NCBI GenBank assembly: GCA_963777505.1
Contig: CAVZQN010000003.1
Coordinates: 96,001 to 160,000, forward strand
DNA: 64,000 bases
Source: an uncultured bacterium
GTDB taxonomy: Bacteria > Acidobacteriota > HRBIN11 > JAKEFK01
Reading direction: 5' to 3'
In this document: positions 13,947 to 54,226 of the stretch, in pieces
How the letters are laid out: each line of letters starts with the position of its first letter
Position numbering within the stretch: position 1 is the stretch's first letter
The notes under the pieces: generated by a model
Seen by the model: the letters and a program-made list of their open reading frames with translations, nothing else
The model's database searches: none
Told to the model about the DNA's origin: nothing
Translations under genes and position numbers: made by a program

Positions 13947-14020
13947 GGGCCTATAGCTCAGTTGGCTAGAGCGCACGCCTGATAAGCGTGAGGTCAATGG
14001 TTCAACTCCATTTAGGCCCA
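13947..14020 (+). tRNA. tRNA-Ile (GAT), CCA not encoded
   Basis: GGGCCTA/TAGGCCC acceptor stem, D-arm AGCTCAGTTGG, anticodon GAT at 13981-13983, TTCAA T-loop. Confidence 0.97.
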
Positions 14021-14033
14021 CTCTTTGGATTTC

Positions 14034-14105
14034 AGATTTCAGATGTGAGATTTCAGATTGAAAGCGCTCTTCAATCTAAAATCTGAAATCTCACATCTGA
14101 AATCT
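14034..14105. repeat. Heptamer-periodic inverted repeat in the tRNA spacer
   Basis: 26-bp perfect arms AGATTTCAGATGTGAGATTTCAGATT at 14034-14059 and 14080-14105. Confidence 0.9.
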
Positions 14106-14109
14106 CGAT

Positions 14110-14182
14110 GGGGATATAGCTCAGTTGGGAGAGCGCCTGCTTTGCACGCAGGAGGTCAGGGGTTCGAATCCCCTTATCTCCA
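14110..14182 (+). tRNA. tRNA-Ala (TGC), CCA not encoded
   Basis: GGGGATA/TATCTCC stem with G3:U70, anticodon TGC at 14143-14145, GGTTCGAATCC. Confidence 0.97.
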
Positions 14183-20306: not shown

Positions 20307-21095
20307 TCACAGAGCTTTGCCAAGGAGTTCATCAACTTTTTCGCGATATCTCCGGCTGATTGTGAGTTCTGTTGAGTTACGTAGAATGACGCGGAAATCT
20401 CCGTGAAACAGAGGTTGAAGCTCTTTGATTTGATCAATGTTAACGATGGCAGATTTGTGAATGCGAACAAACTTTTTCGGATCCAATTCGGATTCGAGAT
20501 TGTTCATCGCATCCCGTATCAAGTGTGACTCTTGTCCGGCATGAATCATGACGTATTTGCCCTGTGCTTCAATCCAATCGATTTCATCTGTTTTAAGAAA
20601 CGAAACTCTTCCTTTACTTTTGATGATCAATCGATCCAAATAATGTTGATGTACTTTTAGCTCTTTCAACAAAGCTACAAGTTCGCGATTACTTGAGCCT
20701 TCATGATCCTGGGAGACTTGAGCTTTTCCACGTTCGAGAGCTTCCTGAAATCGTTTTTTGTCGAAGGGTTTCAAAAGATAATCAAGAGCATGGACTTCAA
20801 AAGCCTGAATCGCATAGCGATCGAATGCAGTAACAAAAATTACGCGAGGCATGTTGGACGAATCCAATGATTGCAGCACCTCAAATCCATCCATTTCTGG
20901 CATTTGAATATCAAGAAATATCAAATCCGGATGAAGTGTCCGGATGCTTTCGACAGCATCTTCACCATCGTTACACACTTTTATTATTTCAATTTCAGGA
21001 TCCTCTTTTAGAAGACGTTCAATCCTGCGGCAGGCAATCGGTTCATCATCGATGATGCAAACCCGAATCAGTTGTTTTGTTTCAGTCATTTTCAA
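20307..21095 (-). CDS. LytTR-family response regulator (canonical)
   Basis: IIDDE, FLDIQMP, FVTAF, LKPF; LytTR FVRIHKSAIVN. Confidence 0.95.
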   Translation of the reverse strand: MKMTETKQLIRVCIIDDEPIACRRIERLLKEDPEIEIIKVCNDGEDAVESIRTLHPDLIFLDIQMPEMDGFEVLQSLDSSNMPRVIFVTAFDRYAIQAFEVHALDYLLKPFDKKRFQEALERGKAQVSQDHEGSSNRELVALLKELKVHQHYLDRLIIKSKGRVSFLKTDEIDWIEAQGKYVMIHAGQESHLIRDAMNNLESELDPKKFVRIHKSAIVNIDQIKELQPLFHGDFRVILRNSTELTISRRYREKVDELLGKAL

Positions 21096-23344
21096 GTTAC
21101 CTCATTGATGCAGGCGAGACGTGCATCCTTCGTCTGTGGTCCCTTGTGAACCGGAATTTCGAGTGTAACGCGTAGGCCACCTTCGGGCGCATTTACCATT
21201 TCGAATCGATAGTCATTTCCATACAACTGCATCAATCGTTCTCGCGTATTTGAAAGTCCTAAACCTGCACGTTCAGGGTTCATTCCTCTTTTCAATTTAG
21301 GCAATCCAGGGCCATTATCCTGAATACTGACTGTCAACATCCCATTATTTCTCCTGGCACTGATATCAATTTGGCCCGGTGTTTTTCGTGGCGCAATCCC
21401 ATGTCTGATTGCATTTTCAACAATAGGCTGTAAAACCAGGTTCGGAACAGATACTTTCATTGCCTGCGCATCTATATCCATTGTGACGCTAAGTCGATTC
21501 TGAAAACGCACACGTTCAATGGCAAGATAACAGTTCAAAAATTCAAGTTCCTTTTCAAATGGGATTTCATGCACTTGATTGCTGTTGACCGTCAGATGCA
21601 GAAAATGTTGAAGATTCTCAATCATTTCCTTGGCCGCGCTGGGATTCTCTTGCATCAATTCGGAAATTGAATTCAATGAATTGAACAAGAAATGTGGATG
21701 GAGTTGCATTTTTAACGCTTGCAGTCGCGCACGGCTCAGTTGAGCATTTAGCTTGGTGGTTCGTATTTTCTCTGCTTCAATTCGGCGGTGATATCGGAGA
21801 GAGTTTTCAACAGCAACGATTGTTAGATAACAAAGAATGTCGAATGCAAAAGGTGTCCGGGCAACATACACGGGCAATATTTCTAGAAAATCATAGTGTC
21901 CAAACTGGGCAGCTGAGAGTACCACGGCATAAGTGCCGGCTGCCAGGAATAAAACACAAATGAACCCAAGTAGATGGACCATCATATGTTTCCAGCGATG
22001 CTCTTGCTGAAGAGGGAATCTGGCAGAGAGTTTCAAAACAAGTGGAGTGAATAATGCCCAGATGTACCATCCGGTTGAAGCAACCATTTGTCCGGCCCAG
22101 TCGAAAGTCTTTCCTGCGCTGGCATCCCTGATTATGGCTTGAATCGCGAAATAAACAGCAAGGATTGTAAAAATTCCTGTAATCACAAGCCATCTTCGAA
22201 CGGTATTCGATGGTTCTGAATTAAACTCAACCGGCCGGATGCTTTCTTCTTGAGCTTGGTGTTGAACAACTTCATCAGATTTTCTTTTTTCAAGGACAAG
22301 AGGGATTTCGATCCGTGTCGTACTTTTTTCGGAAAGATTCGAGATACGAACAGCAATCGAAGTTTGATATAAGGCGTTAAGCCTTTCTAATAATTGATGG
22401 AGGCGAGGACTTTCAGAATCCGTGTAAAGGTCTGTAATTGTCAGCACAAGAGACGTTTCGGTTTTCGAACTTACGATAACCAAATGGAGCGGATCATTAT
22501 CACGTCTGCGGCGGATGGCATCTTCGATCGGTGCGTGCAAAATTAAGCTAGGTACGGTGCATTCCAGCGAATCGCGATCAAGATCAAATTTGATTTCAAC
22601 ACGGTTCGACAATCTGATGTTTTCAATTTCCAAATAGCATTTGAGAAGATCAACTTCTTCTCGTAGAGTTACTTCAGAATTTCCCGAATTTTCAAGCGTC
22701 ATCCGAAGATAATCACCCAGGCGGGCCACCATATCATCCGCTTCGTCAAGATTGCGGTTCATCAGGTTTGGAAGTTGATTCAAGTTTTTGAAAAGAAAAT
22801 CAGGATCGATTTGCATCTTCAACGATTCGATTTGCGATCGAATAATGCTGTCTTCAATTCGCGAAGAGTGAATTTCTGTTTCAACTGCGGTCCGATGATA
22901 GTTCAAGGCCAGGCAAACCGACAAAATCATTTGGTAGATCAGGAAGCGCCACATGAAGGAATTGACAAAGGACGCAGTCAGCATTTCGCTAACAGTTTTC
23001 AAATCACGTTCAGGATGAAATGCCCATTCAGTGAACAGGACGTAAATAATTCCATGGACTGATGCCAGCAATAATCCTGCGAGAAAATGAGCCAGCAGGC
23101 TTTTCAATCTTGATCCGGTATCGAATCGAAACCTAGCTGCGAGAGCCGCAATGATCGGAAACAATGCCGCCCATAGATACCACGTCGTAATTTGACGCAG
23201 AAGTTGATCCTTCCATTGAAACGTTACATTGGCAAAAGTCGAGGCAATGTAATACTGGACTACGAAGGCCAACGCGATGATCGTGGCCATTCCAACAACA
23301 CTCAACGCGTGTTTTTGTCGCATTTTTTGAACCTGGACATTCAT
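21092..23344 (-). CDS. Tandem LytS-type sensor: degenerate kinase module fused to an intact kinase module
   Basis: Two TM-plus-kinase units; second has LHPHFLFN, ENAIRHG, DNGPG and GLGL; first has IDPDFLFK and EDAIRRR with no G boxes. Confidence 0.88.
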   Translation of the reverse strand: MNVQVQKMRQKHALSVVGMATIIALAFVVQYYIASTFANVTFQWKDQLLRQITTWYLWAALFPIIAALAARFRFDTGSRLKSLLAHFLAGLLLASVHGIIYVLFTEWAFHPERDLKTVSEMLTASFVNSFMWRFLIYQMILSVCLALNYHRTAVETEIHSSRIEDSIIRSQIESLKMQIDPDFLFKNLNQLPNLMNRNLDEADDMVARLGDYLRMTLENSGNSEVTLREEVDLLKCYLEIENIRLSNRVEIKFDLDRDSLECTVPSLILHAPIEDAIRRRRDNDPLHLVIVSSKTETSLVLTITDLYTDSESPRLHQLLERLNALYQTSIAVRISNLSEKSTTRIEIPLVLEKRKSDEVVQHQAQEESIRPVEFNSEPSNTVRRWLVITGIFTILAVYFAIQAIIRDASAGKTFDWAGQMVASTGWYIWALFTPLVLKLSARFPLQQEHRWKHMMVHLLGFICVLFLAAGTYAVVLSAAQFGHYDFLEILPVYVARTPFAFDILCYLTIVAVENSLRYHRRIEAEKIRTTKLNAQLSRARLQALKMQLHPHFLFNSLNSISELMQENPSAAKEMIENLQHFLHLTVNSNQVHEIPFEKELEFLNCYLAIERVRFQNRLSVTMDIDAQAMKVSVPNLVLQPIVENAIRHGIAPRKTPGQIDISARRNNGMLTVSIQDNGPGLPKLKRGMNPERAGLGLSNTRERLMQLYGNDYRFEMVNAPEGGLRVTLEIPVHKGPQTKDARLACINEVT

Positions 23345-23433
23345 GCTGTAATTTTATATTCGCTATAAACGCACCCAATTACAAACGGAATAAGGCGGAT
23401 ATTATCTGGCTTAATGTGGAGATTTTTGTGCAG

Positions 23434-23505
23434 AAAATCAGGGGCGGTGATCAGGCCGCCCCACCATGGAGGAGCAATGCAGGGGCACAAGACTCTGTGC
23501 CCCTG
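23434..23505 (-). terminator. Two hairpins / terminator downstream of TonB-dependent receptor 1
   Basis: CAGGGGCACA/TGTGCCCCTG and GGGGCGG/CCGCCCC, followed on the minus strand by TGATTTT. Confidence 0.6.
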
Positions 23506-23514
23506 TATGTACTC

Positions 23515-26442
23515 TTAAAAACTGTATCGAACTCCCAAGCGCAAAGCCCTGGGTGAAATCAATTCATCGATTCGATTGAACGAAGCGGAGGATACGTTTC
23601 GGAGTCGTCGAACAACCGCATTCGTATTCGTTACATTAAACAGATTTGCGGACACGGCAAGACGACCATAATTCGCGAAATCGAAGCCTTTTTCAAACTG
23701 TAGATCCAGTGTAAAAATGTCATCGAATCGCCGGTCGCCAAATGGCTCAACAAGGATCAGGTGATTTGTAGTGCCCAAAGAGGAAGCCAGTGAATCATCA
23801 CGGATCGTTGCAAGCAGAACGTAAGGATAGCCCTGCTGATAACGGCCAAAAGCGCCAACAGAAAAATCCCATGGCAACTGATAAACACCGCTCATCTTGA
23901 ATTGCCATTCTGAATAAGGATAAACACCCGCTTTTCCGCTTCCACCGGGAGCAAAAGCATAGGGATGACCATCAAGAAATGGCAAGTTTGTTGGATCGAA
24001 TGGAAATACCTGACCGCTCAAGCCGCCATCACCAATGTAGAACGAAAGTGAATCACCACCATCATAGTTAGCTTTTTGTTTCTGCAGGGTTAAGCCAGCA
24101 TTCACCATGAAGTTGTTGCTCATCCGTTTGCGAGCGGTGATATCAATCCCGTCATATTTAGTTTTGTAATCATTCGCATTCGTCAAGATCTGATCGCCAT
24201 CATCAACACCGCCGTAAACGAAATACGGAACGTTGAAATTTCCCAGAGCTGTATTTGCAGTAAACGTACCACCAGGGACAAAGTCAGCTTCTGATATTCC
24301 GAAAGGTACGATCACAGTGTTATCACGGTAGTCGCGATGAGTGTAAGTGGCACTGACTGATAGATCTTGCATGAGTTGGCGTTCGAACCCAACGATGTAT
24401 TCCCAGGAACTTGAATTCCTGAGATCCTCATCGATCTTCCTGCTATCTTCAAATGCAGCCAGATCAAATGTTGGCCCATTCAATCCGCCAAAATAAGAAG
24501 GTGGTCCGGTAATTTCATCCGGAGTAATAACACGATCACCGTTGCTGTTTTCGAATGGCAGAATCGCACCGTTGTAAACGAAGGTGGGATTCTGATACGA
24601 AATGAATGCGTTATTCAACGCATCGTAATATCGTGCGAAATTTCCACGAACGATGGTCTTTCCATCTCCGGTGAAATCGTACGTCACGCCAAGACGCGGC
24701 GAAATGTCATTGAATGAAATTCCGGGATCATTGCCCGGATATTCCAGCTGACCAACAAGCGATTCGAAACCCGGTACTCCCGGAATTGATGAAGCTAGAT
24801 TTTTTCCGGTTTGATGATCAAAGCGGAATCCAAGATTTAGAGTCAGCCTGTTTCGGCGATATGTATCTGTCGCGTAAAAACTAGCACGATCTAAATCAAC
24901 TCTTCCATCAATCCAATGCTGGGCATAAAGGATCCCTGAAGTCAGTGGCCCTTGTGGCGTAGTTTGGTTGTAGTCAACAATGAACACACCATTTCCATAC
25001 GAACTGAAGGTGTGAAGATTTGCTGATTTGTATTCGAATCCGAACTTAAATTCATGATCGCCACCCATTACGTTTTCGCTGAAGTAATTTCCATCAACAA
25101 CGAAATCATGCGCAGGGCGATCAATGGGGGCCGTGTAAAACAGAGTGTCTTCGTAGCGTGGAATGGCGGCCAGGTAGATCATCGGTATATCTTTTCCACC
25201 ATTCGGTTTTAATGTGAATCCGAGACCGACGTATCCGTAACGTCCGGTGACAATCATTTGATCGCTGGGGATCCAGGTATGTTGTGCTGTCCAGATGCCT
25301 GGAAGGATCGTATCGGTACCGGCTTGTTCCCAAAGTGTTTCCGGAGCTTGCAGCGCAATCGAAATTCCTGCTCTTCCGGATTTCGTTTTTTCGCCTTGGA
25401 AGTATCCGAATTGCGATTCATGAGCAGGAGACCAACTCGCGTTTGCTTTAAAGTTGAAATCTTCGAGTTCAGTGAGATCAGCAGTATTCGCTGTTGTAAT
25501 CAAACCAATATCGTTTTTGCGATACGCACCCCAAACAAAGAATTTGTCTTTTATGATCGGTCCGCCGATATCAAAACCATAGTCTTTAACTTCATCGAGC
25601 CGGTTTGATTGAGCTCCGATCGATGCGAGTTCATCAGGTGTGTTATCGCCTTGAAGACTATCACCGGCGTAAAAATAGGAAGCACTTCCTTCCCATCGAT
25701 TACCACCACGTTTTGTGACAATGTTAACGATCACACCACCGGTCGGTGCGGACGCATCATTTCCACCGGTAGAAATTTGCAGTTCTTCAAATGCATCGAA
25801 ATCAAAATAGGTTGGTGATGCACCCATAGCTCCTGGGTCGGTTGCATTCACACCATCGTAATTGAAGATTGTATTGTCATCGTTTCCGCCTCGCGCAATA
25901 AACGATGCTTGCTGTCCAGACTCAGAACCTGCGACATTGTAACGATCTGAATCAACACCAGTAGTTTGATCGATGATGGTCCATGGGTCGCGAGCACTGG
26001 GAACATCTTCCAAATAATCACGACTGTACGTATCGGATGTGCCTGTTTTTTTGGTATCGACAACAGGTGTTTCGCCGATTACTGTAAATTCCTCAGCGAG
26101 CGACGGCCGCAATGTAATTTCAAGCTGAACCTGCGAGCCAGTGCTGATGCGTACTTCTTCCTGACGTACTTCCGTAAATCCTTCGATTGAAAAATTCACA
26201 GAATAAACTCCAGGAGGCAGATTCGCAAAGCGGAAACCGCCAGAAGCACCAGACGTTGCAGTCTGTGTAGGAATTTCATTTGATTCAAGCGTAATCAGTA
26301 CGCCAGGTAGTGGACTGCCTTTATCATCTACAGCTTTACCGTAGACGGAACCCGTCTTCATTGAAACTTGTGCGAAGAGGGGATAGGCAATTGCAGAAGC
26401 AAAGAGAACCACTACCATTAGTATGAACGATTTAGTTTTCAT
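23515..26442 (-). CDS. TonB-dependent receptor-like outer-membrane protein (Oar-like, N-terminal carboxypeptidase-regulatory-like domain)
   Basis: Signal peptide; G.PLPGV...FRFANLPPG.Y; plug GGVIVNIVTKRG; beta-barrel pattern; C-terminal F. Confidence 0.88.
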   Translation of the reverse strand: MKTKSFILMVVVLFASAIAYPLFAQVSMKTGSVYGKAVDDKGSPLPGVLITLESNEIPTQTATSGASGGFRFANLPPGVYSVNFSIEGFTEVRQEEVRISTGSQVQLEITLRPSLAEEFTVIGETPVVDTKKTGTSDTYSRDYLEDVPSARDPWTIIDQTTGVDSDRYNVAGSESGQQASFIARGGNDDNTIFNYDGVNATDPGAMGASPTYFDFDAFEELQISTGGNDASAPTGGVIVNIVTKRGGNRWEGSASYFYAGDSLQGDNTPDELASIGAQSNRLDEVKDYGFDIGGPIIKDKFFVWGAYRKNDIGLITTANTADLTELEDFNFKANASWSPAHESQFGYFQGEKTKSGRAGISIALQAPETLWEQAGTDTILPGIWTAQHTWIPSDQMIVTGRYGYVGLGFTLKPNGGKDIPMIYLAAIPRYEDTLFYTAPIDRPAHDFVVDGNYFSENVMGGDHEFKFGFEYKSANLHTFSSYGNGVFIVDYNQTTPQGPLTSGILYAQHWIDGRVDLDRASFYATDTYRRNRLTLNLGFRFDHQTGKNLASSIPGVPGFESLVGQLEYPGNDPGISFNDISPRLGVTYDFTGDGKTIVRGNFARYYDALNNAFISYQNPTFVYNGAILPFENSNGDRVITPDEITGPPSYFGGLNGPTFDLAAFEDSRKIDEDLRNSSSWEYIVGFERQLMQDLSVSATYTHRDYRDNTVIVPFGISEADFVPGGTFTANTALGNFNVPYFVYGGVDDGDQILTNANDYKTKYDGIDITARKRMSNNFMVNAGLTLQKQKANYDGGDSLSFYIGDGGLSGQVFPFDPTNLPFLDGHPYAFAPGGSGKAGVYPYSEWQFKMSGVYQLPWDFSVGAFGRYQQGYPYVLLATIRDDSLASSLGTTNHLILVEPFGDRRFDDIFTLDLQFEKGFDFANYGRLAVSANLFNVTNTNAVVRRLRNVSSASFNRIDELISPRALRLGVRYSF

Positions 26443-26482
26443 AGCTTCTCCATTTGGTTAGGTTATTGTTCAAAGAACCTTG

Positions 26483-26498
26483 AGCAAGCCCCATGCCA
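26483..26498 (-). promoter_or_regulatory. sigma54 (-24/-12) promoter of receptor 1
   Basis: TGGCATGGGGCTTGCT, GG-N10-GC, 40 nt upstream of the ATG. Confidence 0.75.
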
Positions 26499-26706
26499 GT
26501 GAATCAATCGACGGAGAAATGAATCAGCCACGCGATGAAAATCAAACTTTTGTTCCGTGTAAGTGCGCTTGCCTTTCTTGATAACGAACAATTCGTTCCT
26601 CGAAATGCATCAATCGTGGAATTTTCCGAATCGCACAGGCCAAGAACTGAAAGTTGAATGGCGATTAGCTTTTTTGTGTTTCTTTGTGGCTGTGTGGTAA
26701 AAGGAT

Positions 26707-27486
26707 TTACCGCAGAGTCGCCGAGGGTGCTGATTTGAGTGCGGGCAGTTTCGATTTGCGGCTTAAAACAAGAAGAGTTCCATCTTGAAGCACGACTTGA
26801 TAGGTTCTGCGGTAATTCCAGGGTTGAACACGTCTCACGCGCTCAATGTTAACAATTGTAGATCGATGAATTCGAACGAATTGCACCGGATCTAATTCCG
26901 CTTCAAGCGCTGAAATGCTGATCCTTAAAACAAGAGATTCTTTTCCAATATGGAGACGGACATATTTTCCATCCGCTTCAATCCAATCAAGTTCATCGCA
27001 TTTGATAAAATTTACAGTCCGTCCGGTTCGTATTGTTAAATGTTGTTGGCCGCGCCTAATCCCAATTGAAGGGACTTGACTCTTGATGCGTTCGGCTTCA
27101 CTGCGAGCGCGGTCTAACGCTTTCAAGAAGCGGCTTTCGCTCAAGGGTTTCACAAGATAGTCAACTGCTGAAACTTCAAAAGCGCGTGCAGCAAAATGAT
27201 CAAGACTACTAACAAAAATTGTAACCGGGCGATATTTTTCTGGAAGCGAATCCAATAGCGCAAATCCATCAATGCCCGGTGATTCGATTTCGCAAATTAA
27301 AATATCAGGTTTGAAGTCTCGCACCATTGAAATCGCTTCCATTCCATTTGCACATACTTCAATCTCTCGCGTGGAAGGTTCATTTGTTAAAGTTTCAATC
27401 ATTGTTTGCCGTAACACTGGATCGCTCTCAACGATAAGGAACCGAAGTTTCATATCTAAAGATTTATCTGTCATTGCGGCTCTCAT
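26707..27486 (-). CDS. Atypical LytTR response regulator (phospho-Asp replaced by Glu)
   Basis: IVESD and LICEIESP replace IIDDE and FLDIQMP; LytTR FVRIHRSTIVN intact; start at 27486 avoids overlap with msrA. Confidence 0.85.
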   Translation of the reverse strand: MRAAMTDKSLDMKLRFLIVESDPVLRQTMIETLTNEPSTREIEVCANGMEAISMVRDFKPDILICEIESPGIDGFALLDSLPEKYRPVTIFVSSLDHFAARAFEVSAVDYLVKPLSESRFLKALDRARSEAERIKSQVPSIGIRRGQQHLTIRTGRTVNFIKCDELDWIEADGKYVRLHIGKESLVLRISISALEAELDPVQFVRIHRSTIVNIERVRRVQPWNYRRTYQVVLQDGTLLVLSRKSKLPALKSAPSATLR

Positions 27487-27487
27487 A

Positions 27488-28039
27488 TTAATTTCCCCAC
27501 AATTCACGCAATTGACGATCCCGGCCGCATTGAATCTTATACTGTTTATAACGGCGAGCATTCTTTTTATAAAAATCCTGCTCGCTTTCTGCAACCGCAG
27601 AAAATTGCATTGCCGGGAAAATTGGCGTAACAATCTGCTTATTCAGGATTTTTTCAATTTTGAGTTTCGATTCTTCAGCCAGTATTTTTTGGCGGTCATC
27701 ATGATAGAAAATTGCGGAACGATATTTTGGGCCGCGATCGCAGAATTGACCATCCGGATTTGTTGGATCGATATTTTTCCAAAAGACTTCTAGTAATTTC
27801 TCGTACGAAATTGTTTCAGGATCATATACGATTTCCACAGCCTCGACACTTACTGTTTGTCCGGATGAACCAACCACTGAAAAACCCGTTGTCGTTGAGA
27901 GAACCCCATCCAACGTGTCAAAAGGTTCTTCCATGCACCAATAGCAACCTCCGGCAAAAGTTGCCTTCGCAGTTGTGGCCTGTGCCGAAACAATTTGAAA
28001 AGCAAGTAAAAAAACAACTAAGAATCTCAGGATCATAAA
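27488..28039 (-). CDS. msrA: Secreted peptide-methionine (S)-S-oxide reductase-like protein with atypical active site
   Basis: GGCYWCME, DPT...GQFCDRGPKYRSAIF; signal peptide; lacks the NPTY...GH segment and the His of HQ.Y. Confidence 0.8.
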   Translation of the reverse strand, partial: FMILRFLVVFLLAFQIVSAQATTAKATFAGGCYWCMEEPFDTLDGVLSTTTGFSVVGSSGQTVSVEAVEIVYDPETISYEKLLEVFWKNIDPTNPDGQFCDRGPKYRSAIFYHDDRQKILAEESKLKIEKILNKQIVTPIFPAMQFSAVAESEQDFYKKNARRYKQYKIQCGRDRQLRELWGN

Positions 28040-28149: not shown

Positions 28150-28623
28150 CTAAGAATATTTTCGTGTTGCAAGGGAGATGGGAAGTCCGACACAAAATAT
28201 ATGTATGGTCAAACCTACAAGAAGCCACGCAAAAGCGAATGAAGTTTTGTGGGGAAAAGCAGAAAGAGGTAACACGATCAATTGCATAAAGAAGTAAACA
28301 GCAATTCCGTAAAGGATGCCGCAAACAACGGCATGTTGCACAAGGAAATGTAACCTGCGACTTAAAATAAAAAAGACTGTAGCCGCACTGAACGCAATGA
28401 AGAAATGTAAAAAGACTCCCAGCGCCGCAGTAGCCAGATCGCCTTCATACGATTTCGCACCGAGAAGTCCACTTGCTATGGATTGCATGATCAGGACAGG
28501 ACTTCTACCTCGCAGCAATCCATAAACAATGATTGCCGCAGTCAAGTCCATCGCCCCGCACATCAAGCCGCCGATCAGAATTGCACGATTTGTTTTTGAA
28601 GCGATTGCTATATTCATTGCCAT
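28150..28623 (-). CDS. Four-TM membrane protein of unknown function
   Basis: Hydrophobic helices; QSIASGLLG, LHFFIA, YGIAVY and HIFCVGLPI motifs. Confidence 0.75.
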   Translation of the reverse strand: MAMNIAIASKTNRAILIGGLMCGAMDLTAAIIVYGLLRGRSPVLIMQSIASGLLGAKSYEGDLATAALGVFLHFFIAFSAATVFFILSRRLHFLVQHAVVCGILYGIAVYFFMQLIVLPLSAFPHKTSFAFAWLLVGLTIHIFCVGLPISLATRKYS

Positions 28624-28728
28624 TGCCGAAAGATACGTTACGCTTCTTCAACGAGCAATTGTTTTGGTGCAAGCGGTTTCTTTGCGTGCCCAAGTGCGAG
28701 AAAAATCGGGGAGAAAGGGAGGTGTCTG

Positions 28729-29532
28729 CTAACCCGACTCAGTGCGAACTTTTCGGACAGCACTCATCAGTTGTTGAACGCGTTCAAAGACTATCTGTTC
28801 GTGAGCGGCTTTACTATTTTTGAGGGAGGTTCCAACGATCGCGCCATCAGCATAACGGAATAAAGTGCCAACATTTTCCGGAGTTGTTCCGCTGCCAATC
28901 AAAATAGGAAAATCACCAGCCGCGTTACGGACTTCCGATAAACTAACCGGTGTAGGAGCTTCACCGGTTATATTGCCGCTCACGATCAAAGCATCGGATT
29001 CATGTGCAATCGCTTGATTTGCGGAAGTGCTCAAGCTTTTACCCGATTCCAGCAATTCACTGTGTTTCACCTGAATATCCGTTAATAAAGCAACATTTTG
29101 TGCGGAAATCTTTTTGCGATAAGCGGTAACAGCATCCGGTTCAGGATTGATAATGCCTGCAGCGATGCGAACCGTATCTACGAAAAAATCAAGACGGACA
29201 AATTGGCAGTCAGTTTCTTTTGCAATCGTAAGAGAAGCGCGCCAATCGTTTAAAAGCACTTGCACACCGACTGGAACTTTTGTTCGTTTGACTACTTCTC
29301 GCGCAATGTGTGTGATCACATCAACCATCTCATTTCCAACTGTTAACTGTTGAGGTTGATCGTAGTCATTCTCAATACAAACGCCATCCACTCCGCCATG
29401 TTGTAGAGTATCCAGATCATTGAGTGCACGCCGAGTCGCAGCATTAAGAAATTCTGGAGTTAATTCCAATGGAGGCAGTGCAATCATACCGATCACCGGT
29501 TTTGGATTGGGGAAAATTTTGCGAAACATCAT
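28729..29532 (-). CDS. BtpA/SgcQ family protein
   Basis: GMIALPP, IENDYDQP, GVQVLLND, DIQVKH, IVSG..TG, ADGAIVGT. Confidence 0.88.
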   Translation of the reverse strand: MMFRKIFPNPKPVIGMIALPPLELTPEFLNAATRRALNDLDTLQHGGVDGVCIENDYDQPQQLTVGNEMVDVITHIAREVVKRTKVPVGVQVLLNDWRASLTIAKETDCQFVRLDFFVDTVRIAAGIINPEPDAVTAYRKKISAQNVALLTDIQVKHSELLESGKSLSTSANQAIAHESDALIVSGNITGEAPTPVSLSEVRNAAGDFPILIGSGTTPENVGTLFRYADGAIVGTSLKNSKAAHEQIVFERVQQLMSAVRKVRTESG

Positions 29533-29539
29533 TTATAGA

Positions 29540-30361
29540 TTATCCAATAGCACCATAGTGTTGAAGTACATTCGCTGCATGTTGTGCACCCTTTTGCAAT
29601 GCATGTGCGACGTTGCGCTCATTCCAGTATGAAACTGTAAAGGCTGCTTGAAATGCATCGCCGCATCCAGTGGAATCAACAACATTGGCTACCGTTAGCG
29701 ATGATTGATATAACGATTCACCTTGATAAAGGGCCATACTTCCTTCAGCGCCAAAAGTAACAACGATCAAACACTGGCTTGCTCGCGAAAGCGGACGCAA
29801 ACGTTCTGCCGTTGTAGGATCGCCACTAACAAATGCAATCGTTAATCGATCGATGACCTCTTCCAAAATCCGAGTATCCTTGTTGTAGTCAGATAGATCT
29901 AGAAAATCTGCAACTCTCCATCCATTGAATTCAGTAAAGTTTAACAATTGGAAAAAGAGCGGTTCCATTTGCTTGAACAAAGGTGACGCTAACAGATTGT
30001 GTTGTTGGAGAAAATCTAGATCATCGTTCTGAAGTTGATACCCTTCAAGTACACCTGACTGATAGCCACCGGACGGAAAGATCCTCTCGCCTCCTGCGCC
30101 AAGGGTTATGTTTTGTCGCGCAGTAGCGCCAGCTGCAGTCTTGACGTGAGTAGAATCGACGCCTTCTTTCGCGAGTGCATTCAGGATTCGCTGACTATGA
30201 TCGTTGCCGATGCGACTGACAAGCGATACATTTTCGGCTCCATTGCGTTTGCAATGAACGGCGAAGTTTAGAGAAATGCCGCCGACAAAATCCTGGTTCA
30301 GATCAAGATAGTCGTCAATCGTACATTCGCCAACAGAAACAATACGGAGTGACCCTTTCAC
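29540..30361 (-). CDS. PfkB family carbohydrate kinase (fructoselysine 6-kinase-like)
   Basis: VGECTIDDY, GGISLNFA, VTFGAEGS, DSTGCGDAF. Confidence 0.88.
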   Translation of the reverse strand: MKGSLRIVSVGECTIDDYLDLNQDFVGGISLNFAVHCKRNGAENVSLVSRIGNDHSQRILNALAKEGVDSTHVKTAAGATARQNITLGAGGERIFPSGGYQSGVLEGYQLQNDDLDFLQQHNLLASPLFKQMEPLFFQLLNFTEFNGWRVADFLDLSDYNKDTRILEEVIDRLTIAFVSGDPTTAERLRPLSRASQCLIVVTFGAEGSMALYQGESLYQSSLTVANVVDSTGCGDAFQAAFTVSYWNERNVAHALQKGAQHAANVLQHYGAIG

Positions 30362-30412
30362 TGTCGCGCATTATACCGTATAACATTTCTAGATCTCACG
30401 CAGGAGACATCT

Positions 30413-31093
30413 GTGGACTACACATTAAAAGACATAGCCCATTTAATCGATCACTCACTTTTAAATCCCATCCTTACCGCAGAACAACTTGAACAGGGAA
30501 TTCAAACGGCACTCAAGTATGAGGTCGCGAGTGTTTGTATTCTTCCTTATTACTTGAAACGTTGTGCACAGCTTTTAAAAGGAAGCACTGTAAAAAGCAG
30601 TACCACAATCGGCTTTCCACATGGCGGACAGACAATCGCGGTGAAAGTAGCTGAAGCACACCAGGCATTGGATGACGGCTGTGAAGAACTCGACTTTGTA
30701 GTAAACATCAGTCAGGTTCTCAGCGGAAATTGGGATTATGTACGCTCCGATATCAATGCTGTCATTGATGCAGCTCATGTTCGACAGCAAAAAGTAAAAA
30801 TTATTTTCGAGAATTGTTACTTAAATTACACGCAGAAAATGAGATTGTGCGAAATCTCCGGTGGATTAGAAGCTGATTGGGTAAAAACATCTACAGGTTT
30901 TGGCAGCGGAGGCGCAACCATCGAAGATGTAATACTCATGCGGAAGCACTCACCGCCCCATGTTCAAGTGAAAGCTGCCGGCGGAATTCGTGATCTCGAT
31001 ACAGTGCTTGCGTTTCGAGACCTCGGAGTGACCCGAATCGGCACTTCGCATACGCTAGAGATTTTAGAGGAATGCAAACGCAGACGTGGCTAA
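30413..31093 (+). CDS. deoC: Deoxyribose-phosphate aldolase
   Basis: IDHSLL, IGFPHG, KIIFE, VKTSTGF, VKAAGGIR, RIGTS. Confidence 0.95.
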   Translation: MDYTLKDIAHLIDHSLLNPILTAEQLEQGIQTALKYEVASVCILPYYLKRCAQLLKGSTVKSSTTIGFPHGGQTIAVKVAEAHQALDDGCEELDFVVNISQVLSGNWDYVRSDINAVIDAAHVRQQKVKIIFENCYLNYTQKMRLCEISGGLEADWVKTSTGFGSGGATIEDVILMRKHSPPHVQVKAAGGIRDLDTVLAFRDLGVTRIGTSHTLEILEECKRRRG

Positions 31094-50482: not shown

Positions 50483-51982
50483 TCAAAATTCATTTTGTTC
50501 TCCGGTGCCAAGAAAGATCTTGAGTTCAAATGCTGTTCCTTCGGACTCCGTTAGGTGAACCATCGTTGCGTTGATTTGTTTTGCGAGGAGTTTCACAATT
50601 TTGAATCCAAAACTGCTTGCGCTGGCGAAATCAAAACCGGGAGGCAAACCCATGCCATTGTCAGACATTCGAATGACTCTTTTTTGATTTTCCGTAAAGA
50701 AATCAATCTCTATCACACCTTCATTTGCACCATTAAACGCATACTTCAATGAATTTGTAATCAACTCATTAAAGATCAACCCCAGCGAAACTGCCTTATC
50801 AAGACTGTAAGACTGGTCATTACCTGTGATATTAATCCTTACTGATTTTTCAGGAGCATATGAATTCAGGAGCTGTTTACTCAATGTACGCAAATAAATC
50901 AAAAAATCCACTTTGTCGAGGTTTTCGGTTTTGTATAGGCTCTCGTGAATCATGGCCATAGCACGAATGCGGCTGATGCTTTCAGAAAAGGCAGCCTGAA
51001 GCTTTTTTGCGTCCGGATCAAGATGACGAGATCTCAGCTCAAGCAGGCTTCCAACTACCTGAAGATTGTTTTTGACGCGATGATAGACTTCTTGTAAAAG
51101 TACATTTTTGTCTTGCACTGTACGTGCAAGTTCCTCAACCAAACGAACGCGTTCTTCTTCAGCTTTCTTTCTAACAGTAATATCTCTGGCAATAACTGAG
51201 ATAGCTATGAGTTTGCCTTTTGAATCTAGAACCGGGGACGCTGTTAACGAAACGTACACTTCTTTATCATCTTTTGTAGTCCGAATTGTTTCGTAATGGT
51301 CAATTCGTTCTCCACGTTTTAAGGTTTCTATGATTATGTCGACTTCGTGTTTCCGATTTACTGGCACTAAAAATGAAATATGTTTTCCAACGGTTTCGTC
51401 CGCGCTGTAGCCATAAAGTGTTTCAGCGCTTTTATTCCAACTCAAAATCAAACCATCAAGGTTTTTGGAAATGATTGCGTCATCAGATGAATCAACAATG
51501 GATGCAAGGAAATTTCGGATTTCACGGGACCGTTTTTCTTCGGTAATATCATAAGCGACTACAGAAGCACCGATTGTACCTCCCGAATCGTCAGTTACAG
51601 GTGAGACTGAAAGAGAAATATCGATAAGAACGCCGTCCTTTCGTTTGCGAACGGTTTCATAACGATCAATCATTTCTCCGTTTCTAATTTTTTGAAGTAT
51701 TTCAGGAATTTCATTTTCTCTGTCTGGAGGAGTGAGAATTGATACTGATTTGCCAATGATTTCTTGTTTTGTGTAGCCATAAATCCGTTGTGCGCCTTGA
51801 TTCCAGGTGAGTACAATACCACTCAGGTCTTTAGAGAAAATTGCATCATGGGCGGTCTCGACGATGTTCGCTAACGCTTTTTGAAGGATTTCCTGGCCAG
51901 ATATTTCCAAACTGGTGCGGTCTTTTGTTAAATTGGGCTTTTTCTTTAGCTTCAACCCTGATTGTTTCTCCAAATTTTTCAT
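50483..51982 (-). CDS. PAS-PAS histidine kinase (HisKA_2 type)
   Basis: Two PAS domains; EVYHRVKNNLQ, NELITNSLKYA, DNGMG. Confidence 0.92.
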   Translation of the reverse strand: MKNLEKQSGLKLKKKPNLTKDRTSLEISGQEILQKALANIVETAHDAIFSKDLSGIVLTWNQGAQRIYGYTKQEIIGKSVSILTPPDRENEIPEILQKIRNGEMIDRYETVRKRKDGVLIDISLSVSPVTDDSGGTIGASVVAYDITEEKRSREIRNFLASIVDSSDDAIISKNLDGLILSWNKSAETLYGYSADETVGKHISFLVPVNRKHEVDIIIETLKRGERIDHYETIRTTKDDKEVYVSLTASPVLDSKGKLIAISVIARDITVRKKAEEERVRLVEELARTVQDKNVLLQEVYHRVKNNLQVVGSLLELRSRHLDPDAKKLQAAFSESISRIRAMAMIHESLYKTENLDKVDFLIYLRTLSKQLLNSYAPEKSVRINITGNDQSYSLDKAVSLGLIFNELITNSLKYAFNGANEGVIEIDFFTENQKRVIRMSDNGMGLPPGFDFASASSFGFKIVKLLAKQINATMVHLTESEGTAFELKIFLGTGEQNEF

Positions 51983-52037
51983 TCCTTGACCTATTGTATA
52001 CTGATCCTACTAAGATTCTTTTAGTTAAGAAAAATCC

Positions 52038-53597
52038 ATGTACAGCTTATCGTCTTTTTTTCGGCGTAAGTCTGTTTTAGGACTCACACTTCAAGTTATT
52101 CTTGTTGCGTTCATATACTACTTTGCCGCTCGATTTGGTTTAACGCTGGCATTTCGTGAAACAAATGCTTCACCAGTCTGGCCTCCAACGGGTATCGCCT
52201 TCGCTGCTGTAATGCTATTAGGCTATCGGATTTGGCCTGCGATTTTTGTCGGTGCATTCTGCGCCAATTACATTACAAACCTGAATCCATGGGTTTGTTT
52301 TGCGATAGCTATTGGAAACACTCTGGAAGCTGCTGCAGGTGTATTCCTGTTTCAAAGATTTACTGGCGGCAAATCCATTGTTGATAATGTTAGGAACACT
52401 CTGACATTTCTGGTCCCAGTTGCAATGGGCTCCACAATGATTAGTGCGACCATTGGTGCGGTTAGCATTGTAATAGGAGGGTACTCGAGCGGAGCCCCTT
52501 TTAATTATGTTTGGTGGACATGGTGGCTCGGAGATACTGTTGGAAATATTGTTTTTGCTCCATTAATCTTAAGCCTGGCAAACTTCAAAACCATCCAATG
52601 GAATCCAAAATCATTTGGGGTTTTTGTCATCTTACTTTTGAGCTCGATCTGTCTTAGCTTTTTTGCTTTTGGTTCCTGGTTTGAACAAGGACGAATGTTT
52701 CTTTACTTTACTCTGGCTATAGTCATCATTTCACCTTTTCATCTTTCGGTTCTGGCGACCACAATTCTCTCAACTTTAGTTTCAATGATTGCCGTATGGG
52801 GAACAACTTCGGGATATGGTCCATTTATTCTTGAGAATATGAATGAATCGCTGCTTTTTTTGCAACTCTATGTTGGAACTATTGCTGCAACTGGCCTCAT
52901 CCTCTGTGCCGTATTAAACGAAAGAGAAAAAGCACTTAATGATTTGCTTACAACACAGAAGAAGGCTACATCAGTCGCCGCTGAGAAAACAGTTTTATTG
53001 AAAGAACTCAATCATAGGGTTAAGAATAATCTTCAAATCATCATTAGCTTGCTCAATATGCATGAACAAAGAATTGTAACTGCGGAAGCAAAGCCCATTT
53101 TCAAGGAATGCATAGACAGGATCATGGGGATTAATAGTATCCATCAATCTCTTTTTCAATCGACGCAGCCAGATTTTGTGGATCTTTCGGAATATCTACC
53201 TTTTCTTGCGAAGAATCTTGTCGGTACTCATCAATCGGATACATCCAAAATAAGAATCGAAATTACCGGAGAACGGATATCGATCCATAATGAGAAAGCA
53301 ATGCCTATAGGGATGATTTTGAATGAATTAGTAGTTAACTCGATTAAGCATGCTTTCTTGTCTGAGCAGGAGGGGTTGATCTCTTTAAATCTGAAGAGCA
53401 ATGGTGGGAAAATTGTTTTGTCTTATTCAGATAACGGGCTGGGGATTCGGACGGCCATCAGGCGCGGAGATTCTGGTTCCATAGGCATGCAGATTATTAA
53501 TCTGTTAGTGAAGCAACTAAATGGAAGCATTCATTTTGATACTTCCAGCTCAGGTTCGATCTATAAAATTGAATTGCCCACAGATGTACAGAATTGA
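52038..53597 (+). CDS. MASE1-domain histidine kinase (HisKA_2 type)
   Basis: SPVWPPTG, GNTLEA, WWLGD; ELNHRVKNNLQ, NELVVNSIKHA, DNGLG. Confidence 0.92.
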   Translation: MYSLSSFFRRKSVLGLTLQVILVAFIYYFAARFGLTLAFRETNASPVWPPTGIAFAAVMLLGYRIWPAIFVGAFCANYITNLNPWVCFAIAIGNTLEAAAGVFLFQRFTGGKSIVDNVRNTLTFLVPVAMGSTMISATIGAVSIVIGGYSSGAPFNYVWWTWWLGDTVGNIVFAPLILSLANFKTIQWNPKSFGVFVILLLSSICLSFFAFGSWFEQGRMFLYFTLAIVIISPFHLSVLATTILSTLVSMIAVWGTTSGYGPFILENMNESLLFLQLYVGTIAATGLILCAVLNEREKALNDLLTTQKKATSVAAEKTVLLKELNHRVKNNLQIIISLLNMHEQRIVTAEAKPIFKECIDRIMGINSIHQSLFQSTQPDFVDLSEYLPFLAKNLVGTHQSDTSKIRIEITGERISIHNEKAMPIGMILNELVVNSIKHAFLSEQEGLISLNLKSNGGKIVLSYSDNGLGIRTAIRRGDSGSIGMQIINLLVKQLNGSIHFDTSSSGSIYKIELPTDVQN

Positions 53598-54210: not shown

Positions 54211-54226
54211 TGGCATTACGCTTGCT
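54211..54226 (+). promoter_or_regulatory. sigma54 (-24/-12) promoter of receptor 2
   Basis: TGGCATTACGCTTGCT, GG-N10-GC, 74 nt upstream of the ATG. Confidence 0.72.

Follow-up and report, generated by a model that had tools for sequence, protein, structure and literature searches.

A six-gene module on the minus strand

The 64,000-nucleotide stretch of DNA analysed here (the window) is part of the genome of an uncultured acidobacterium (G000) and carries a signalling module of six genes, i.e., a tandem histidine kinase of the PF06580 family, a canonical LytTR response regulator, a second LytTR protein with Glu at the phospho-site of its receiver (the pseudo-regulator), an outer-membrane receptor, a remodelled paralogue of the methionine sulfoxide reductase MsrA (named MsrA*) and a small membrane protein. 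A preliminary description had proposed five co-oriented genes, all of which proved to be minus-strand open reading frames with named Pfam domains, but a sixth gene (28150–28623) had been overlooked. All predicted parts of the module are located on the minus strand:

28666–28698, minus strand: direct repeat of LytTR type (two 12-mers with a period of 21 bp) ahead of the operon of membrane protein, MsrA* and pseudo-regulator, kept in 7 loci
28150–28623, minus strand: four-helix DUF1440-like membrane protein (sixth gene), four hydrophobic segments
27488–28036, minus strand: MsrA*, exported MsrA paralogue (Pfam PMSR; signal peptide judged by eye from the sequence)
26707–27486, minus strand: pseudo-receiver LytTR regulator (Asp to Glu66; Response_reg and LytTR), start codon one base past the MsrA* stop
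26643–26659, minus strand: box A of a three-box element (alignment of loci), half-site inverted relative to boxes B and C
26591–26604, minus strand: box B (alignment of loci), 42–43 bp from box A
26540–26556, minus strand: box C (alignment of loci), 42–44 bp from box B
26483–26498, minus strand: sigma54 –24/–12 promoter motif of the receptor, kept in 8/8 aligned loci
23515–26442, minus strand: outer-membrane receptor of TonB-dependent type, 975 aa (CarboxypepD_reg, Plug and OMP_b-brl_4)
23441–23462, minus strand: terminator-like G+C hairpin with T-rich tail downstream of the receptor (hairpin scan)
23387–23419, minus strand: weak LytTR-type direct repeat upstream of the kinase operon (21-bp-period matrix)
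21092–23344, minus strand: tandem PF06580 kinase, 750 aa (membrane sensor and dead DHp-CA, then membrane sensor and intact DHp-CA)
20307–21089, minus strand: canonical receiver-LytTR response regulator with Asp60 (Response_reg and LytTR)

One degenerate and one intact kinase module in a single chain

Pfam matched the kinase with two His_kinase stretches and one HATPase_c. In module 1, Asp182 occupies the position of the phospho-accepting His, Asp275 replaces the N-box Asn and the G1 and G2 boxes are missing, while module 2 has an intact His551, Asn644 and Asp676-Asn-Gly-Pro-Gly; the His-to-Asp exchange had thus been read correctly. The His preceding a Phe was taken as the phospho-site because of His382 in BtsS (PMC10653868; this and the other cited papers are used in extract). 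In an alignment of 29 rows (the window protein, 22 of 38 homologue matches and six loci, some rows being near-copies; its own cluster and five truncated and ten single-module matches were left out), the phospho-His was missing from module 1 in 29/29 proteins and present in module 2 in 29/29. Since His551, Asn644, Asp676 and Gly678/680/694/696 of module 2 were invariant in all 29, this module has the hallmarks of a PF06580 kinase. Module 1, with a kinase fold that lacks the phospho-His and ATP motifs, is predicted to be a histidine pseudokinase.

The intact LytS/LytTR pair of the preliminary description was borne out in that both an intact kinase and a canonical regulator are present. This kinase is, however, no protein of its own but module 2 of the tandem chain, and the input that defines LytS is missing from it (no Pfam match to 5TM-5TMR_LYT (PF07694) or GAF up to E=5). 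The sensor of each module is short (3–4 helices). In the AlphaFold model (pLDDT 79, pTM 0.55), the DHp-CA secondary structure was kept in both modules, and the closest solved chain was GanS (Z 16.3, rmsd 4.3, 187 aligned residues). Moreover, 9 of 50 solved single kinase chains aligned from residues 150–180 (module-1 DHp) through residues 731–735 (module-2 CA), a hint that both DHp hairpins may pack together within the chain.

In a tree of 57 modules, from which five input proteins and some modules missed by the motif search had been dropped, the active halves formed the starred clade (100/99) and the dead halves a weaker clade (99/79) with matching subgroups, a pattern consistent with two paralogues having fused once, long ago, and then diverged in parallel. 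A profile search against 1.84 billion representatives returned 52 two-module kinases among its best 150 clusters, a share that is not a frequency because the search profile favours tandems. By a simple motif test, which may misalign single boxes, 26 of these clusters were dead-active, 13 active-dead, 5 intact in both halves and 8 mixed. Judged by these motifs, two-module PF06580 kinases are a recurrent class that mostly combines one dead and one active half, in either order. One active-first cluster has a Gemmatimonadota-named member (10 of the 52 clusters were looked up). Separate origins of dead-first and dead-last tandems were considered, the reversed order being suggestive, but a single active-module clade was not rejected (p-AU 0.57).

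A number of variants were seen alongside. Three loci lie outside the family of G000 (L107, L108 and L114): L114, a Gemmatimonadaceae contig, carries a tandem kinase with the dead half last, and L108 holds a kinase, a separate pseudokinase (His to Pro), two canonical LytTR regulators and a receptor. Shorter tandems of 560–630 aa (G000:C4:24876-26687, C9:4579-6342, L040, L041, L044 and L048) keep the membrane part and DHp of the dead half and have wholly lost its CA domain. At L042:6397-8658 and L043:3061-5266, an intact kinase lies beside a paralogue with the His but without the N and G boxes, possibly a phospho-acceptor-only partner. Finally, both halves are intact in the tandem kinases P0169, P0177, P0187, P0197 and P0295; in three all-intact tandems the halves are mutual closest relatives, indicating recent duplications or assembly artefacts.

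Co-occurrence of the parts in relatives

The order to which G000 belongs comprises seven genomes in one family and three genera (G001–G006 denote the other genomes of the family, and L-numbers the loci examined). A fused tandem kinase was present in 5 of the 6 other family genomes, with G004 (93% complete) showing a split pair only, and none was found in the loci examined from 34 more distant relatives. Unfused pairs, with one intact and one degenerate kinase gene, were also seen in G002, G003, G006 and L108. For the clade of the window kinase, 11 loci were seen, four of which contained all six parts, i.e., the window, G001 (L031), G006 (L035/L166, with many frameshifts) and the metagenome contig L076. 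G003 showed a membrane-MsrA* fusion, the pseudo-receiver and the receptor before the contig ended, G002 and L075 carried the receptor, membrane gene, MsrA* and kinase, and in G005 and L080 MsrA* adjoined the kinase.

A second kinase clade comprised further copies in G000 and G001 together with L078, L081 and L084, and had no MsrA* in the two loci seen whole. The second copy in G000 holds a pseudo-receiver (Asp to Glu), a receptor (71%), a frame-changed tandem kinase and a canonical regulator, without MsrA*; that of the same-genus G001 is unbroken. A third tandem kinase in G000 stands without a regulator. The constant core across loci consisted of the tandem kinase and the canonical regulator only. 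The preliminary description had envisaged one phosphorylation-independent shadow branch, and its degenerate parts do co-occur and are conserved; it is not one inseparable branch, however, since MsrA* occurs without the pseudo-receiver (G002, G005 and L075) and the pseudo-receiver without MsrA* (the second copies in G000 and G001).

The second kinase of G000, the receptor of G001 and several genes of G006 contain frameshifts, which might point to decaying duplicates or assembly errors that merely lie together by chance. Against this, the degenerate parts recurred together in other genomes, and the same substitutions were found in independent genomes, assemblies and metagenomes. Moreover, in two unsaturated kinase pairs dN/dS of the dead half was 0.054 and 0.033 in the DHp and 0.074 and 0.238 in the CA, compared with 0.013 and 0.021 in the active DHp; within module 1 the constraint was strongest on the dimerisation helices. 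The pseudo-receiver yielded 0.18 and 0.09 (two closest pairs) and MsrA* 0.16 (closest pair), at a dS of 1.0–1.6, most other pairs (including nearly all with the window) being saturated in dS. The degenerate domains are thus under purifying selection (dN/dS 0.03–0.24), which speaks against both decay and sequencing error. The preliminary description had set three conditions that would refute it (no co-occurrence in other genomes, neutral evolution, sequencing errors), and none of them held. As the module-1 and module-2 clades also co-diverge and the promoter elements are conserved, chance decay or misassembly is a highly improbable explanation.

The pseudo-receiver regulator

As read earlier, Glu66 occupies the phospho-site of the pseudo-regulator; in addition, Glu20-Ser21 stands in place of the acidic pair and Ser in place of Thr, with Lys113 kept. 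Glu was found at the phospho-site of 7/8 pseudo-receiver homologues, and the acidic pair was broken in 8/8. By these residues, the product of 26707–27486 is an aspartate-less pseudo-receiver. Glu is the commonest Asp replacement in such receivers (PMC12632262), and the D53E exchange renders the LytTR regulator YpdB constitutively active (PMC4847170). When GTDB was scanned with the pseudo-receiver alignment, 80 of the 556 confirmed matches were retained; among the matches listed, 2 belonged to family loci included above, and Glu occupied the phospho-site in none of the remaining 78 (one truncated). Searches of G002 (84% complete) and G005 (83% complete) turned up no pseudo-receiver.

Elsewhere in G000, a LytTR regulator with the Asp kept and Asp-Ala as acidic pair (L002, G000:C3:366578-367375) was the closest canonical-type relative of the pseudo-receivers. 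It is located 3.5 kb from another close receptor paralogue and is possibly an intermediate towards a pseudo-receiver.

MsrA* and its membrane partner

The preliminary description had taken MsrA for a protein stripped of its catalytic residues, which it is not. In E. coli numbering (for positions other than 51, 82, 94 and 134, what we take to be that numbering), MsrA* keeps Cys51 in a GCFW-like motif, Glu94, Asp129, Tyr134 and the C-terminal (resolving) Cys, and it passes TIGR00401 (130.8 bits vs. a cut-off of 108.1). The four positions named follow PMC6210582, according to which the catalytic trio consists of Cys51, Glu94 and Tyr82 or Tyr134. Tyr82 and the Trp pocket held by His186 are altered, i.e., the Tyr82-bearing loop is missing, Phe52 is changed to Tyr and His186 to Glu. 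The Tyr82 motif was also missing in 72 of the best 120 MsrA* homologues, and the Phe52-to-Tyr change was found in 65/72 of these loop-less proteins vs. 0/48 of the others (His186 was kept in 9/72 loop-less proteins). From its residues, MsrA* is judged to be remodelled, not dead.

A homologue of the membrane gene was fused to MsrA* in 17 of the best 120 homologues, and in 15 fusions His66 and Cys137 of the membrane part were invariant. The model of one fusion homologue consists of four helices, a linker helix and an MsrA fold (Z 21.5, rmsd 1.6, 140 aligned residues). The membrane protein itself matched DUF1440/YagU (PF07274) below the gathering threshold (E=0.002, 18.4 bits vs. 34.7), its nearest named cluster in the Atlas scored 0.85, and a fold search of it gave no clear match (best Z 7.7, helical); it is a distant relative of DUF1440 at best. 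A bis-His haem site was discarded, as only one His was invariant in the 15 fusions. A role as general accessory of such kinases was likewise discarded: outside the family, 0/24 loci had a kinase or MsrA within 1.5 kb, and 1/24 had a receiver within ±1.5 kb.

When 401 genomes of the phylum were searched with an MsrA* profile, the genes of the family took the top five places. Six MsrA matches from outside were inspected (one supplied by G035, which also supplies one of the 24 membrane-protein loci); five were canonical, and one, in G356, showed similar substitutions with no module gene within 8 kb. The latter (L212, G356:C1:503165-503749) is an exported MsrA with Phe52 to Tyr, Tyr82 to Ile and His186 to Gln, in which the loop is retained.

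In line with the preliminary description, MsrA* and its membrane partner might sense oxidised methionine or redox state in the periplasm and pass the signal to the kinase, with pseudokinase and pseudo-receiver as a phosphorylation-independent input branch. MsrA* was indeed present in 9 of the 11 loci of the window kinase clade, the contigs of the other two (L074 and L077) ending too early to show its position, and in G002, G005, L075 and L080 it is the gene immediately before the kinase; exported MsrA paralogues of the canonical type had neither a kinase nor a receptor as neighbour in 6/6 loci. The changed pocket would suit such a sensor, as would the short outer loops of the kinase and its conserved membrane His457 (29/29) and Cys144 (90%). 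Nevertheless, the second copies in G000 and G001 combine tandem kinase and pseudo-receiver without MsrA*, the catalytic and resolving residues are retained, the MsrA* operon bears a LytTR-type repeat as a target would, and outside the family the membrane protein had neither MsrA nor kinase as neighbour in 24/24 loci of ±1.5 kb. We therefore regard the sensor role as unlikely; the repeat and the kept catalytic Cys fit a regulated output better.

Conserved elements upstream of the receptor and the two operons

The sigma54 motif noted earlier in front of the receptor was confirmed, and the paralogous module at 54.3–59.4 kb has one as well (54211–54226). As rpoN is present in G000, these –24/–12 motifs are candidate sigma54 promoters. 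G000 encodes five further receptor paralogues at 70–82% identity. The motif was found upstream of 6/6 close vs. 0/10 distant receptor paralogues, and a LytTR gene within 4 kb of 5/6 close vs. 0/14 distant ones (3.1% of random intervals). The two-component system had been proposed to be coupled to the receptor, but the latter looks like a regulated target instead.

In an alignment of eight receptor upstream regions, three boxes and the –24/–12 motif coincided, with fixed spacing between the boxes, a gap of 29–77 bp to the promoter and a conservation of 0.85–0.92 in the boxes vs. 0.51–0.60 in the spacers. Box matrices derived from the six non-G000 loci picked exactly the two pseudo-regulator loci of G000 (60.7 and 48.7; next 18.6). 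As a pattern, the three boxes had seven matches in the seven genomes, six between pseudo-regulator and receptor and one elsewhere; the pattern was derived from these loci and is hence circular for them. It had zero matches with a reversed control and none in G002, G004 and G005, and the element was not found at the four other sigma54 receptor paralogues of G000. One further receptor paralogue (L003, G000:C3:206832-210782) is preceded by a stand-alone LytTR-domain gene and by repeated AACGAA words before its sigma54 motif, two of the gaps being 42 and 21 bp.

Direct repeats with a 21-bp period were found upstream of the membrane gene in 7 loci and of the kinase in 9 loci. When 10.45 million G000 positions were ranked with a matrix trained on 11 non-G000 regions, the kinase site of the second copy came 1st and the two window sites came 9th (membrane gene) and 1854th (kinase), with periods of 20 and 22 scoring far below 21 at all three held-out sites. 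LytTR operators are described as two 9–11 nt repeats with an 11–13 nt spacer (PMC4847170), a rule that the repeats follow upstream of the membrane-protein operon and, weakly, upstream of the window kinase operon. The repeat core resembles the CCGTTCGTC of AlgR (PMC4064291). Boxes B and C bear the same half-site in most loci, and box A does so weakly.

Alternatively, the dead kinase half might modulate the active half while the boxes are an ordinary sigma54 activator site plus an IHF site; the pseudo-regulator would then damp the canonical regulator (as a heterodimer or by competition at the 21-bp repeats) or dock on the dead DHp like DivK on DivL. Sigma54 needs an AAA+ activator, about 29 of which are encoded in G000, and box C also fits what we take to be the IHF consensus. 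Moreover, pseudo-receivers can work via heterodimers, as for WhiI/BldM and as proposed for CmrT (PMC12632262). This alternative is nevertheless doubtful: boxes B and C share their half-site with the LytTR-type repeats, six of seven element matches lie between pseudo-regulator and receptor with none at the four other paralogues mentioned, and no activator gene was linked to the module in G000 or in any other locus seen. A sigma54 activator without DNA-binding domain was looked for as well; five lacked an HTH_8 match, but the three of these that were inspected ended in helix-turn-helix-like tails, and the idea was dropped.

A candidate LytTR regulon

We favour a model in which a kinase/pseudokinase dimer formed by a single chain controls three transcription units as a LytTR regulon, and give the full model about an even chance. 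The two kinase modules would pair inside one chain, yielding a dimer whose sensor halves differ and which has a single ATP site and a single phospho-His. Kinases must dimerise in order to autophosphorylate (PMC10653868); the dead half would be an obligatory dimer partner and an allosteric or second-signal input. The kinase would phosphorylate the canonical LytTR regulator, which would in turn bind the direct repeats of 21-bp period ahead of both its own operon and that of the membrane protein, MsrA* and the pseudo-regulator. Once induced, the Glu-receiver regulator, with no need of phosphorylation, would occupy the three-box element upstream of the sigma54 promoter of the receptor, where it may act alone or together with the phosphorylated regulator, i.e., as a feed-forward step. 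Since LytTR has no AAA+ domain, it would have to act by gating or shaping the promoter, with the activator supplied from another locus. MsrA* and its membrane partner would reduce sulfoxides in the envelope with altered specificity and under regulation, as an output with possible feedback.

Several points weigh against this regulon. The six-part loci are not independent, as they come from one family of seven genomes and short metagenome contigs. The packing hint is taken from the first and last aligned residue, with a pTM of 0.55 and a 29-row alignment. The phospho-site Asp is retained in 1/8 pseudo-receivers, and Glu has been disproved as the source of activity for some pseudo-receivers (PMC12632262). 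At the DNA level, the window kinase-operon repeat is weak (rank 1854), most of the other top-25 tandem matches in G000 lie at a distance from any LytTR gene, the fit of box A to the half-site is poor (p 0.01–0.07), and the 42–44 bp spacing of the three boxes, one of them inverted, departs from the LytTR operator rule; any of the about 29 sigma54 activators could bind the boxes. When the regions downstream of 68 canonical LytTR genes in other taxa, a set dominated by related Ignavibacteria, were tested for enriched k-mers, the half-site was not recovered.

Relation to known systems

No description of tandem PF06580 kinases or of the combination found in the module emerged from the literature searched, in keeping with the preliminary description, although supplementary survey tables may list such proteins; nor did that literature yield an MsrA without Tyr82, a LytTR protein with a Glu receiver or a case of LytTR at the sigma54 promoter of a receptor. 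The layout therefore looks undescribed, while each ingredient has precedent (DivL, ChrS and RetS; CmrT and WhiI; AlgZR; MsrPQ). MsrPQ is reportedly a periplasmic methionine sulfoxide reductase with membrane partner that serves as a two-component output under HprSR/YedVW, and MsrA* and its partner would resemble it if they are an output; MsrP is a molybdoenzyme with a haem partner, unlike the thiol MsrA fold and DUF1440-like partner here. The regulators of CmrRST and BldM/WhiI are of the OmpR or NarL families, unlike the LytTR family here. As in those systems, a pseudo-receiver paralogue is found beside a canonical regulator of the same DNA-binding family (PMC12632262); the word LytTR is absent from that review.

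AlgZ(FimS)/AlgR of Pseudomonas aeruginosa likewise has a LytTR regulator with a CCGTTCGTC-like site, and the algD promoter, with far-upstream AlgR sites in both orientations, IHF and a sigma54-linked activator, is reminiscent of the receptor promoter. The tandem kinase, pseudo-receiver paralogue and MsrA set the module apart, and the extract used does not place AlgR sites at a fixed-spacing sigma54 enhancer (PMC4064291). BtsS/BtsR and YpdA/YpdB also combine a PF06580 kinase with His-Phe and a LytTR regulator that controls a transporter gene from direct repeats; unlike the tandem kinase, BtsS and YpdA are single-module homodimers with 5TM-5TMR_LYT and GAF input (PMC5552118, PMC10653868, PMC4847170). 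In these systems D53E mimics activation, comparable to the natural Glu here (PMC4847170). DivL, a ChrS variant and RetS-GacS exemplify a dead or second kinase that modulates an active one via the dimerisation domain (PMC9491836), but they are separate proteins of other kinase families, whereas the dead partner here is fused and has its own membrane sensor. LytTR Regulatory Systems resemble the module in a phosphorylation-independent LytTR protein and an operon with a membrane protein behind direct repeats (PMC6193735); they consist of two genes, for a LytTR regulator and a membrane inhibitor, without a kinase, unlike the present regulator, which keeps a receiver fold and occurs without the membrane gene in second copies. 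Wherever the contig shows it, the pseudo-regulator is near a tandem kinase.

Histidine kinases are taught as homodimers, and the role of asymmetry or heterodimers is hard to test because both halves come from the same gene. A natural dead/live chain fixes the asymmetry and could separate cis from trans phosphorylation and show the contribution of the dead half. How bacterial pseudo-receivers switch was called a mystery in a 2025 review (PMC12632262), and the module offers a case from the LytTR family, together with putative DNA sites and a canonical regulator as cognate partner. If LytTR sites do form part of a sigma54 enhancer, they would join two regulatory modes thought separate, and MsrA* is a natural active-site variant whose sulfoxide specificity is of interest. 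More speculatively, and with rather less confidence than the regulon itself, the module may embody two undescribed principles, namely kinase/pseudokinase fusions as widespread covalent asymmetric dimers with two different sensor halves, and a naturally phosphomimetic LytTR protein at a sigma54 enhancer that recruits or licenses an AAA+ activator in trans; MsrA* with its four-helix partner would then be a new unit in the periplasm, for sulfoxide reduction or redox sensing, with feedback on the kinase.

Other features of the window

The hairpin scan found 7 terminator candidates vs. 9.4 in shuffles, i.e., not above chance, and a sigma70 promoter scan remained at chance level. A sense 14-mer, looked for on both strands with one mismatch allowed as a lead to an antisense RNA, matched the two receptor genes and one unrelated position, and no antisense copy was found. 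Rfam detected two tRNA genes only (13947–14182). The simpler paralogous module at 54.3–59.4 kb agreed with its preliminary description, in that it has a single intact kinase and an intact receiver without degenerate parts. Next to the six-gene module, at 28729–31093, a minus-strand BtpA-family gene and PfkB kinase diverge from a DeoC aldolase, forming a small sugar/nucleoside locus that is not kept beside the module in relatives. A divergent HisKA_2 kinase pair with two-PAS and MASE1 inputs is located at 50483–53597, just upstream of the paralogous receptor module.

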